Shown piece after piece: positions 673-9,400 of a stretch of DNA of 64,000 nt. The notes under the pieces were generated by a model. That model did not search any database. It was not told the origin of the DNA and was given only the letters and a program-made list of their open reading frames with translations. This stretch comes from Octopus vulgaris (taxonomy: Eukaryota): positions 41,850,001 through 41,914,000 of the forward strand of contig OX597831.1 in NCBI GenBank assembly GCA_951406725.2, written 5' to 3'. The position numbers and the translations under genes were made by a program. Positions within the stretch are counted from its first letter, which is position 1. Every line of letters starts with the position of its first letter.

Positions 673-753
673 CTTTCCTGAGCCTGCAGTATGGAAGGAG
701 CTACCAGCAATAAAAAGGACCAGTTTTCTTGATTTGCTTCGCCAACCAATTTG
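673..753 (-). CDS. ITGB: Integrin beta coding exon 9 ([27 protein letters not shown])
   Basis: cttctttttag|CAAATT...GGAAAG|gtatgg; 81 nt, phase 0 to 0; IGWR...L..F.....FH.AG.GK motif. Confidence 0.94.
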
Positions 754-3700
754 CTAAAAAGAAGATAAAAGTAATAATAATAATAACAATTTTTTTATTG
801 ATCACAAAGACTCATAAAATTCAAAACATGTCATACAAAAGTGGTTACAAATATATCAATATACAGGGTGTTCAGGCCAAATTTGATGATTTTTTTTTTA
901 TATCTCCCTTTTTTTTTTCAGGAACAGCTTCATATATTGGTGAACAGTCAATGGTGTTGGAGGGCATAAAGATTAAAATTGTAGTTGAGAAACTGTTAGC
1001 TGACTTATTTCTTTATTGCCCAGAAGGGGTTAAACATAGAGGGGACAAACAAGGACAAACAAAGGGATTAAGTCGATTACATCGACCCTAGTGTGTAACT
1101 GGTACTTAATTTATCGACCCCGAAAGGACGAAAGGCAAAGTCAACCTCGGCGGAATTTGAACTCAGAACATAACGGCAGACGAAATTCGCCTGGCATGCT
1201 AATGTTTCTTCTAGCTCGCCGCCTTACCTGTTAGCTGACTTGGGGGACTGGAAGCCATTTAAATATTGGAAAAGGGTTGCTTGTGTCATGACAACTGATG
1301 CCAAGTACTAAAATGCTGACATCGTGACAACTGTTCAATGCTCTGTGAACACTGTAAAGGGTGTAAGACATGACATGGATATCACGAAGACCAAGTTCCC
1401 TGAAACTGTGATGGTTGGTCTTTGTGTATGTCACCAGTGACAGTGACATCATGCCACCCCATATTTTTAAACAGGGCCTTAGGATCAATTCCAAAGTTGC
1501 TGAAGCCTGTGGTCAATCCTGTGTGTCAGAGAAGTTTGCAGCTGGAATGCCATATGCTCCTTGCCATATCTCCAGAAAGAGTTAGAAGTGGTTGTAGAAG
1601 TTTTACAAATTTACCAGCTCTAGGTTCTAACCTAATTCCTCCATTTATAATCCCATGTGTTGAGAATTTATAATCCCATGGTTGAGAAAGACACCAACTG
1701 TTCTGCCAGTAACACCAAAGCCAAGCTGGTAGCTTATATCAAGGATATGTTCAAAGACCTTCCCCAGGACACAGTGAAGAATGCACACACTAGATTTTAA
1801 AGCCTCCTTGAAGCTGTGTTGGAAGCTGAAGGCTGCTACATTGAGTAAACTGTTATCTCCTAGGTATAATCTAATTGGTATCTTGATATTTTTTAAAAAT
1901 ACTTTTATTTTTGGATGGGATATTGTTTTCTTTTCCTTTTAGGCAAATGATCAAATTTAGCCTGAATTCTCTGTATGGCATGGCTGTGTGAAAATATGGT
2001 AGGGGAAGGGTCAAACCTTTCCTTACCACATTTCTGTAAAAATACACTGCTTTTGTTTGGATTAATTTTGAAAGTAGCAGAGAATCTATGAAAATAACTG
2101 GTCATTATTAAGCTTGTGTTTGGAACATAAATCAATATGAAATTCTAATGGAAGTTTTTAATTTAGATCACTCTAAAGCAGGACACCTGTATCGTATATC
2201 TTAGATCTTAGATCCCAAAGTGATCTCAGCAGGTTCTCCTCTTTGTCCTGTGCATCACATGTAACACACAAGATATATTCTCTTGGCATCCATGCATCAG
2301 ACATGATACATATTCCCAATTGTGTTTTCAGCCACCAGAGTAACTAGGGGGATCTTATGAAATGAAAGCTTTATATTACTCAGAATTTGTGAAACATGGA
2401 CTAACTAAAAGTCTGAAAATTAGCATGGACGTTTAGGACAGACTTAAGAAATTGCTTTGTATAAGCAAAATGTTAACCATTTGTCTGACCTGTGTATAAT
2501 AATAATAATAATAATGAAATTATTGTATACAGTGCTCAGGTGCACCACAACTTGTCAAAAGTGCATATAAAGCATATACAGTAATGTACAAATGTCTGGG
2601 AAGTGAACTGTGTATGAGTCAGATACATGCTTGTGTGTATGGAGGGGAGAAAATCAGGTGTAGTGTTGGCGAATCTCAGGAAGCATGGAAGTTTTGAAGG
2701 ATGCAGTACTCCGACAACTAACAACTGATGCCAGCAATTTGTTCCATACTTCAGCAACTCTTAGCGTGAAAAAATGTTTACGAAAGTCATGGGAGCTGTG
2801 CTGTTTTCTGACTTTGTAAACATGTCCATGGGTGTTAGACAGGTGGAGTTTGCAAAGGTGCTCAAAGTTATTGTTAGTAAGATGGTTAATAATTTTATGG
2901 GTGTCTGCCAAGTCAGCTGCCAGATGTCGGAGTTTCAATGTATCCATGCCCAGGGAAGTAAGGCATTCAGAATATGGCAAATGCCTGAAGACATATTTCC
3001 ATGACATCCATTGATCATATATGATAAACATTGCCATTTTTTTTTCAGCTACCAGAATAAGATGGGACTTACGAAAGGAAAGCTTTATATTATTTATTCA
3101 GACCATATGAAACAAGGGTTAACTAAAAGCCTGAAACCAAGTATGGACGTTTAGTCCAAACTTACAAAAATGCTTTGGACAAGCAAAGGGTTGACCCTTT
3201 CTTTCATGTGTATCATCACATATGTAACACAGGTCATATTTTCTTGGCATCCATGCATCATATATGATACATATTCCCAATATTTTTCACTGACTAGAGT
3301 TACTTGGGATTTTTAAAGGGAAGACTTTATATTTATTACTCAGAACTTATGAATCATGGGCTGGGCTAACTAAAAATCTGTAAACAAGTAAGGACATTAA
3401 GGACAAACTTATGAAAATACTTTGGACAGGAGAAGGTTAAGGTATTTAATGTAAGGGGCACAAAAGTAATTTAAAGGGTCAGTTTACTCAAGGAATGTAT
3501 ATTCTGTATTTAGAAATGTGAAAAAACTCCTGTTGTTACTTACTTCACAAACCAATGTTTGCATGAGAGCATCAAACCCAGCTTCAGGAATGTCGTTACT
3601 GCCAGAGATTTCAGCTGCAGCTACCATTTGCTGGATTTCAAACAAACACAAATTATTAAACTTAACATATAACAACAATAACAACATCAACTACAAGTTA

Positions 3701-6332: not shown

Positions 6333-6400
<68 letters not shown>

Positions 6401-9400
6401 TGCCTTTTCCTTTTCTTTTCATTTCCCTTTTTCTCCTAATTATAATCTTCTAAACCATTTTGATGTTTGTTAAATGGAACGAGATAAATGCAAATTTACT
6501 TCGATTTGATTAAACAGAAACAGCTGTAAATGGTTCTGAACTACAATTAAACTATGACTTTTTAATACCAATGATCAACTTCCCATTGTTAATTACTGCT
6601 CCATTTCTTTTCTTTTCAATATATATTAAACCATAGACTTACCTTTAAATTACCAACTACTGTATACCTTATAGCTAGGACTATACATAGTGAGGCAATA
6701 CACCAGGAGTACCTAAGGATACATCTATCCCTAAGATGGTTGCACAACCTCTGACTCATATTTTTCTGTTGTATATATTATTTATTTATATTTATGTGAG
6801 AGAGAGAGCACGGTTAAGGATCAATAAAAAAAAAAGGACTCTATCCAGTGAGAGATAAGTATCATTTAATAAAAAAAAACAAGATTTAAATGTGAGCTCC
6901 TCTTAAGTTTCATGCTTGGATGGGACATGACATGCTATACAAGCCTGTCTGATTACTGTTCATCAAAGCATGAAAGTTATAGTAGTACACATTTTTAAAT
7001 CTTGTGTTTGTGTGTCTTTGTGCATTTATATGTGTGTAACCTGGATAATGTAACTATTTTTCTATAGACTGAAAAAATGATGAACAGTCTTGATTTTTAA
7101 GCATTATTGAGTTCTCACTGTAAATATACATCACTTGACTAATCCCAGAGAAAGAAGAAGTCGATATTTATATACACACAATAAATCCAGTAGCTTCAGT
7201 GAACTAGAGCCACTAACTTACATGTAGACACCCACACCCCACGTTAAGCTGTTGCACTGATGAATGCAAGATCATTATTTCAATTTCCAGACTGGGTGGT
7301 ACATTGTATTATTGAGCAAAACACTTTATTTTATGTTGCTCCAGTCCACTCAGCTGTAAATGGGTGACCCTGCAACAGACTAGCATTCCATTCAGGGGAA
7401 ATATTGCCCTGCCTATCTTAGCAAGTGGGGTGGTATCATTCGAAAGTTACAACAATGCAAAGCAGATTGTGACCAGCGATGTATAACAGCATCCGACATT
7501 GACTGATGCTATGATACCTCATGATATGTTTGTGTGTGTGTGTGTGTGTGAGTATGTGTGTGTGTTCCTTGTACTTACATTGTTATGTTGCTATCAGTGA
7601 AAACAAATGGCGGTATTTCTTTCTCAACGTAGGATCCAAATCCAAGCAAGAATTTTTTGGTAATCTTCTTCATTTCTTTAGCTGTAGAGAAGTAGATGGA
7701 ACATACATACATATACATAGCATGTCTGAGTACATTTGTGTCAGTCAGTCAATCTGTCTCTCTGTCTGTCAGTCAGTTTGTCTATATTTGTACCAACCCA
7801 AGACTATGTTTAACCTGATACCATGGTCAACTGAAAACTGATTGGACCTTCTGATGTTATGGTTGACTCATGGCTATGATAGACTTGGGGTCATATAATA
7901 GAAGACACTTAATCAAGGTGACACATCGTGGAATTGAACCCAAAACTATTAGATCTAATCCCACAGTGGTATGCAAATGTGGCCATACTTCAAAAGTAAG
8001 CTTCTTAAACATGGCCCATACCTTTGCTCACACCCATCATTGCCACCACCACCACCACCACAACTAATACTACTGGTCTGTATCTTTCTTGCTTCCAAGT
8101 TAGTTATTATTTATCTGTCTATAGAATGACTGAGTGGAAGAATTGTCAGAGAATTGAATAAAATGCCTTGTAGTATTTCTAATTGTTTAGGAAACCAAGC
8201 TGAGGCCAGCTTTGCCCATCATTCTACCAAGGTCGCTGAAATAAAGCACAAGTTGATGGCATCCACTAACCTCACTCCCTTTCAAAATTTCTGTCCTTGT
8301 GTCTAAATTAGAAATAATTGTTTATCTGTCCCCCAAATATCTTACAATCATAGCAACATCATCATCCTCATTCCTGTCATTTAATATCTGTCTTCCATGC
8401 TGACAAGAGTTGAAGAGTTCAACAGGAACTTGTGATCCAGAGGACTGTCACAAGCTCTACGAGTCTCTACAGCTGGATGCCCTTCCTAACGTCACATAAA
8501 ATGTAAAGCAATAAAAATAACATTGACAACAAAAAATAAAGCAATCATTGTGCCTATTCTCACCAATGATCATGAAATTTTGGGAAATGAGCAAAAGAGT
8601 ACGATTGCAAATACATTCAGCCAAAATAAGGTTCCTTTGAAAGATCTCTGGAGTAATGTAACTCAACAGGCTGTGTAGCTCAGAGATCAGGGAGGCCCTT
8701 TAGCTTAAGCTGTGGATTTTTTCCACACTGAGAGGTCAAAGCCCTGGTACTAAAGACATGTAATTAGAATGCTGAAGGAAAGAATTTCAAGATGGATTCT
8801 TCTTCAAGCCAAACCAAACAACAGGAAACCCATGGGTAGACCAAAAATGGGAAGGTTTGGTAATGACCATTGTCTCAGTTGGTCGTACTTAGGAATCCAA
8901 CCAGGAAGTCAAATGAAATTAGCTTCTGATAGGACCCTATGGAGGACATGCCTGAGGATTTTACCCCCATGACCCTCCCAGGAATTGTGAGTGAAAAATA
9001 TGGATGAATTGATGGATGGGTCTTACCAAGTGTTTGTCCAAGTTTTGACAACGTCTCCTTACTACGTTTCATTGAAGCAGAGAGATCCATAAGGACATAC
9101 AGGTCAACAGCACTGTCTTTAGCTTCCCGATAGGCCAGCTCTATTCTGTGAGGCTTTCCTGAAAGTAGACAAAAACCCAGGCAAGAATTTAAATACTGAC
9201 AGTAAAAAAAGCAGCAAGAGTTTATAAGTTCATCATTATCATTGTTTAATGTCCCATTTTCTATGTTGGCATTAGTTGGATGGTTTGATGGGATCTGGTG
9301 AGATGCATCGTGCTCCAATGTCAGCTTTGGCATGGTTTCTACAACTGGATATCATCCCTAATACCAACAACTCTACTGTGTACTGTGTGATTTTTTTTTT

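Follow-up and report, generated by a model that had tools for sequence, protein, structure and literature searches.

Can an integrin beta subunit that has lost every aspartate of its ADMIDAS (the metal site adjacent to the MIDAS, or metal ion-dependent adhesion site) still serve as a receptor, and if so, does it work in the manner of vertebrate beta8? The question is raised by a 64,000-nucleotide stretch of the Octopus vulgaris genome (hereafter the window; positions 41850001-41914000 of the contig here called C18), which contains, on its minus strand, 9 of the 22 coding exons of an integrin beta gene. A preliminary description, made from the sequence alone, had interpreted part of this gene (673..9158) as a functional integrin beta in a convergent, beta8-like state. 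The analysis reported here confirms an intact, spliced integrin beta gene that lacks all three ADMIDAS aspartates. It is a real, conserved variant of a known family, less exceptional than claimed at two of the three residues and rare at the third.

Residues are numbered along the mature beta3 chain, and papers are cited by PMC number for those parts of their text that were available. The two loops singled out in the preliminary description read as reported: DLSASMKRS is encoded by GAT CTC TCT GCT TCA ATG AAA CGT AGT, the downstream LFIAGSSFH contains the glycine codon GGT, and the MIDAS glutamate is present in the PEAG motif (coordinates in Table 1). When the near-identical protein P0002 is aligned to human beta1 and beta3, the loops yield the substitutions D126R, D127S and D251G, that is, the loss of the ADMIDAS ligands as listed, with those of the other two metal sites, in PMC3792891, PMC3691460 and PMC6889490. 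The best PDB match is beta1 (E 5.6e-159); the alignment is gap-free from D119 to D127 against both human chains and, around D251, against beta3 as well; against beta1, a gap of one residue falls just upstream of D251. With so strong a match and an alignment so nearly gapless, the residue mapping is therefore not a matter of chance. The MIDAS residues D119, S121, S123 and E220 are retained, as is D217. Three further changes had gone unremarked: N215S in the SyMBS (synergistic metal-binding site), D259S, and T329P, the last encoded by an exon outside the window edge. Within the SyMBS set (D/E158, N215, D217, E220), E158, D217 and E220 fit and position 215 is Ser; D158E was considered as a further defect and rejected, as human beta1 carries Glu there. 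The beta6-alpha7 loop still carries its (D/N)S motif, and the tail its two NPxY motifs.

Exon joining across the window and ten neighbouring stretches gave a coding span from window position 33674 to C18:41798483, with a product of 778 amino acids. All introns are GT-AG and the frame has no internal stops; the five exons within 673..9158 are joined in frame at such sites, and the open frame without downstream frameshifts or stops, as presumed earlier, extends over the whole gene. The product differs from P0002 (labelled Octopus sinensis) at 4 residues and from P0042 (labelled Octopus vulgaris) at 0 over 695 residues. The P0042 model omits the transmembrane exon (C18:41799875-41799715), which is intact in the genome, and terminates out of frame; its C-terminus is likely a model error. 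The ortholog P0043 matches six integrin beta Pfam families above cut-off (PF00362, E 3.9e-86), in the domain order PSI, hybrid, beta-I, EGF, beta-tail, transmembrane and cytoplasmic. Its predicted structure (mean predicted local distance difference test score 85.8) matches solved integrin beta chains, and the closed beta6 and beta1 headpieces superpose on it at 2.2-2.5 Å; the model contains no ions and is silent on metal occupancy.

Transcription is supported at the MIDAS exon. The junction 9027/7681 is joined in 4/4 runs from four studies, in contigs of 2.2-2.9 kb; these are 4 of 24 listed runs, assessed over 7572-9200, and their RNA origin was guessed, not recorded. The exact removal of a 1345-base GT-AG intron is as expected of a spliced transcript, for which the preliminary description had asked confirmation. 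The contigs show 0 base differences from the genome in the MIDAS exon and the next exon in 4/4 runs. RNA editing that would restore or alter the sites was accordingly rejected for these two exons, with the reservation that contigs lose rare variants.

Orthologs comprise P0002 and P0043 (O. sinensis), P0001, P0005 and P0041 (O. bimaculoides), P0003, P0004 and P0045 (Argonauta hians) and P0006 (a 12-member cluster at 55% identity); those placed in trees form a single clade with support 100, and a third homolog search, with P0006 as query, added no new named cephalopod ortholog. G251, A250, S215 and E158 are invariant across all of them, down to 55% identity, as are D119, S121, S123 and E220, and the full-length orthologs have KDS or NNS in the loop and tails with NPIY/NPLY or NPLY/NPVY. 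Positions 126, 127, 259 and 329 vary: 126/127 are R/S, S/T in Argonauta and P/S in P0006, which also carries D217E, found in 1 of the 131 representatives of the survey described below. The conservation of R, S and G that was to be looked for in cephalopod orthologs thus holds for G251 and not for Arg126. The proposal that the Arg might stand in for the cation fails with it and is ruled out, because position 126 can be Arg, Ser or Pro. Among four orthologs, the invariant non-Cys columns amount to 56% in beta-I, the most conserved part of the ectodomain, 28-38% in its other parts and 58% in the transmembrane segment and tail. At the level of sequence, such a distribution is what a gene under constraint would show, and with the intact frame and spliced contigs it bears out the earlier view of a functional gene rather than decay.

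How unusual is such a subunit? A PF00362 search found five beta genes in this genome, four of which lack D126/D127. The only canonical one lies at C1:87.76 Mb (C1:87760425; DLSNSMADD, STDSD), whereas those at C1:143.79 Mb (C1:143792652, DISKTMEKY), C27:18492877 (DLSYTMAKY) and C8:115928743 (DCSVTMKGH) lack the pair and keep D251; the gene in the window is the only one of the five without all three Asp. The C8 gene additionally has N215S. At least three integrin alpha loci (C27:9037513-9041589, C10:5952834-5959403 and C10:96915494) are candidate partners.

A wider survey took the best 150 matches of a 50%-cluster search, of which 3 without a beta-I match and 16 gapped at scored sites were set aside, leaving 131 scored representatives; the counts refer to the clusters nearest the query and, with canonical betas collapsed by clustering, overstate the share of genes. 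All three Asp are present in 70/131 and D251 is kept in 121/131, while neither D126 nor D127 is found in 41 (36 without an acid at either position), 36 of which retain D251. Ser replaces N215 in 12/131. Non-Asp residues at all three positions occur in 5/131, namely Argonauta P0004, wasp P0087, snail P0111 and P0150, and abalone P0071, in which a 3-residue insertion follows the motif and one realignment put Asp at 126; no acid at any of the three is found in 2/131 (P0004, P0111). Outside the 131, sea spider P0097 reads H,H,G and P0210 reads D,H,G. Gly251 has arisen independently in P0097/P0216 (Nymphon striatum) and in P0210/P0222, the sea spider form also lacking D126/D127. On a FastTree tree of 144 rows, no fewer than 17 changes are needed to explain the loss of the pair, although 37/141 inner branches are weak, so that how many losses there really were is uncertain. 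Both acids are missing from 23 named betaPS-like proteins of ants, bees and wasps, 20 of which have DLSAS. These hymenopteran proteins (P0013, P0015-P0018, P0020-P0024, P0026-P0036, P0038, P0039) mostly read DLSASMxPY with Pro329, and mostly keep D251 and the NPxY motifs.

In these alignments loss of D126/D127 is thus common among invertebrate betas, and the absence of all three Asp is rare. The preliminary description had allowed that the substitutions might prove widespread in invertebrate betas, and they are so for the pair, although not for the triple loss. The octopus clade stands apart, with 6-7 changes at seven accessory positions, where none of the other representatives among the 131 exceeds 4; the stem that leads to it is long, at 0.58-0.62 changes per column. 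Coupling of T329 or (D/N)S loss to loss of the pair was considered and is not claimed: for T329 a raw table looked strong, with Thr kept in 7/35 versus 62/93 (Fisher p 3e-6), but independent pairs gave median p values of 1 and 0.5 and, being only 10 in number, do not allow a decision. An invertebrate-directed literature search returned no account of the metal sites of this gene or of recurring ADMIDAS loss in invertebrates, although figures, supplements and subscription papers may show alignments. The nearest case is a DDL-to-EDL change in a coral (PMC2397394), and the word MIDAS is absent from the main text of an oyster integrin family paper as available (PMC7390872).

The reading that we favour, with a probability of about 0.55, is that of a talin-type beta without an ADMIDAS, predicted from its sequence to bind acidic ligands through Mg2+ and to be switched by talin. 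The kept MIDAS core would likely engage acidic ligands via Mg2+, no ADMIDAS calcium is predicted once the side chains of D126, D127 and D251 are gone, and the two-NPxY tail points to activation through talin and kindlin. By analogy with mammalian mutants, Ca2+ would not inhibit and high Mg2+ and Mn2+ would activate more weakly; the closed state may be stickier and the open state weaker, narrowing the affinity gap between on and off. In alpha5beta1 D137A/D138A, Ca inhibition is abolished, the closed state is 9-fold tighter and the open state 2.4-fold weaker (PMC9265148). The link to the hybrid domain would be looser too, and the receptor as a whole would be graded, not binary.

A weaker suggestion concerns the MIDAS itself. 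D251 reaches the MIDAS by way of water in each of the eight states described in PMC3691460, and in states 5-8 it also makes direct contact with the ADMIDAS, so Gly251 would remove a water-mediated second-shell carboxylate and its charge, and N215S may weaken the SyMBS. In beta7, loss of a neighbouring auxiliary Asp (D271) shifts the half-maximal Mg concentration from 0.1 to 100 mM, about 1000-fold, with rescue at 100 mM (PMC3255974). With its second shell and SyMBS weakened, the octopus site would need more Mg2+ for metal loading. The blood of cephalopods, with an Mg content close to that of seawater (tens of mM), could supply the extra Mg2+, making the loss tolerable.

Several points weigh against this mechanism. 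The exon with D251G lies outside the stretch (7572-9200) over which the run contigs were assessed. We found in the literature no experiment in which D251 itself was mutated, beta7 D271 being the adjacent position, and Ala at positions 8/9 of the beta-MIDAS motif lowers affinity in beta6 and beta8, with effects that depend on context (PMC6889490). In Bulinus, a freshwater snail (P0111, P0150), D251 is missing too, with Asn in its place, which weakens a simple explanation by seawater. Furthermore, 57% of beta-I columns are invariant, so that four invariant MIDAS residues are by themselves modest evidence.

The ADMIDAS has been proposed to be what makes integrins on/off switches, and among mammalian subunits only beta8, which works without talin, is described as lacking it (PMC9265148). 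A natural subunit that combines a talin-type tail and a typical beta6-alpha7 loop with the absence of both the ADMIDAS and D251 would separate these features and provide a direct test of the switch proposal. That about three in ten of the divergent beta clusters sampled lack D126/D127 lowers the surprise of this gene, and it suggests that mammalian Mn2+/Ca2+ rules may not hold for many invertebrate integrins. Tentatively, and with more doubt than attaches to the mechanism, the gene might be seen as a talin-driven cephalopod integrin with an ion cluster reduced to approximately the MIDAS alone, graded, calcium-blind and tuned to Mg-rich blood. It would then stand at the far end of a class of invertebrate betas without an ADMIDAS that has evolved repeatedly and gone unrecognised, in which case talin-type integrins could do without the site.

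The competing explanation that survives best, although we consider it unlikely, is relaxation in a paralog: D126/D127 would have been lost first, D251, N215 and D259 would then have drifted as no longer needed, and the product would be a plain, weak adhesion receptor. The repeated loss of the pair across the tree and in most betas of this genome fits such a history, as do the variability of positions 126, 127, 259 and 329 among orthologs and the long stem of the clade. Yet D251 persists in most pair-less representatives (36/41), so it is normally still needed after the pair is gone, and drift does not account well for G251, A250 and S215 being fixed throughout the orthologs. Less probable again is a MIDAS too weak for metal and acidic ligand, the subunit acting instead as a partner in structure or signalling, or binding a ligand that has no Asp/Glu anchor. 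The excess of accessory-site changes over the other 130 representatives, among which changes E158 is a normal beta1 variant, and the D217E of the distant ortholog P0006 lend themselves to this idea, which is countered by the presence of the four direct MIDAS ligands in every ortholog and the high conservation of the surrounding loops.

A convergent beta8-like receptor, in which the ligand site opens without hybrid swing-out and Arg126 replaces the cation, is in our estimate improbable. Human beta8 (PDB 6uja_B) reads DVSASMHNN, YVDKT, SGNIDTPEGG, MTDQTS and IESKAAN. Neither protein has Asp at positions 8 and 9 of the beta-MIDAS motif, where an ADMIDAS ion is thus unexpected, and both have SAS and a replaced Thr (T329) in the beta5-alpha6 loop. 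SAS is, however, no mark of beta8, as Ala122 occurs in 9/95 tree rows with an acid at 126/127 and in 20/23 of the named hymenopterans. Moreover, beta8 has Asn-Asn at 126/127 where the octopus has Arg-Ser, with the Arg giving way to Ser in Argonauta and Pro in P0006; it keeps D251, N215 and D259, which in the octopus are G, S and S; and it lacks the (D/N)S motif, its loop being disengaged, and the NPxY motifs, its tail binding Band 4.1, whereas the octopus subunit has both kinds of motif. The atypical activation of beta8 has been tied to the missing ADMIDAS together with that loop and that tail, and restoring DD in beta8 did not bring back headpiece opening (PMC6889490). Alignment scores are 339 bits to beta8, well below 534 to beta1 and 506 to beta3.

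Tests were made on 28 selected rows, with the trait columns removed, using a quick LG+G4 tree in which beta8 is a single long row. They rejected a grouping with beta8 (approximately unbiased test, p=0.008) and with the G251 form of the sea spider, a separate lineage (p=0.001), but did not reject a grouping with the N251 gastropods (P0071/P0150; p=0.28) or with the two octopus KY paralogs (p=0.14). The ADMIDAS was therefore lost independently of beta8, so that of the earlier label the convergence stands, and the likeness to beta8, at sequence level, does not extend beyond the absence of the ADMIDAS. A pseudogene or decaying gene, which several substitutions at normally invariant acids might suggest, is very improbable and already largely refuted by the open 22-exon frame, the spliced contigs and the full length of the orthologs from O. 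sinensis, from Argonauta and from two further record sets.

Table 1. Coding exons of the octopus integrin beta gene (window positions unless a contig is given).
Feature	Position	Strand	Basis
Coding exon, ATG and signal peptide (another exon may lie upstream)	33611..33674	minus	exon joining
Coding exon, PSI domain start	21151..21227	minus	exon joining, Pfam
Coding exon, PSI domain	18478..18588	minus	exon joining
Coding exon, N-terminal part of hybrid domain	11137..11218	minus	exon joining
Coding exon, beta-MIDAS motif; D119 (9087), S121, S123 kept; D126R, D127S at 9066-9061	9027..9158	minus	codons, run contigs
Coding exon, SyMBS position 158 = Glu (7625-7623), as human beta1	7579..7681	minus	alignment, run contigs
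Coding exon, specificity-determining loop region	4562..4634	minus	exon joining
Coding exon, N215S (3600-3598), D217, MIDAS E220 (3585-3583)	3544..3630	minus	alignment
Coding exon, D251G (705-703), D259S (681-679)	673..753	minus	alignment
Thirteen further exons past the window, through the transmembrane segment and two NPxY to the stop	C18:41845451-41798483	minus	exon joining

Elsewhere in the window, a satellite of about 1.4 kb (38314-39744), composed of degenerate TTAGGG-like units with higher-order periods of 70, 140 and 210 bases, is located 4.6 kb upstream of the first coding exon. The first residues of the O. bimaculoides model P0001 match a repeated intronic element at 36365 (minus) and 23921 (plus); since they do so at two sites, this N-terminus is probably a gene-prediction artefact. 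Short open frames at 49015-49446, 27835-28242 and 2654-3097, all on the minus strand, gave no Pfam match at E 0.01, and Rfam gave 0 matches in the window. We take these frames to resemble retroelement remnants.

Among known systems, the typical three-metal, talin-binding beta shares with the octopus subunit its domain order, DxSxS and E220, the (D/N)S motif and a tail with two NPxY motifs; it differs from it in having Asp at 126, 127 and 251 and in lacking N215S, D259S and T329P. Natural proteins with non-Asp residues at all three positions, as in the octopus, are found in Nymphon (P0097/P0216; H,H,G), abalone (P0071; Asn), snail (P0111/P0150; Asn) and wasp (P0087; Glu). Also comparable are the engineered alpha5beta1 D137A/D138A (PMC9265148) and alphaVbeta6 N8/N9 (PMC6889490), which are talin-type and lack the ADMIDAS carboxylates, their beta6-alpha7 loop being typical. 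These mutants retain the D251 equivalent and an intact SyMBS, whereas in the octopus both D251 and N215 are missing from a subunit that is natural and conserved. By this analogy, we infer that it works more like an engineered ADMIDAS-null alpha5beta1 or alphaVbeta6 than like beta8.

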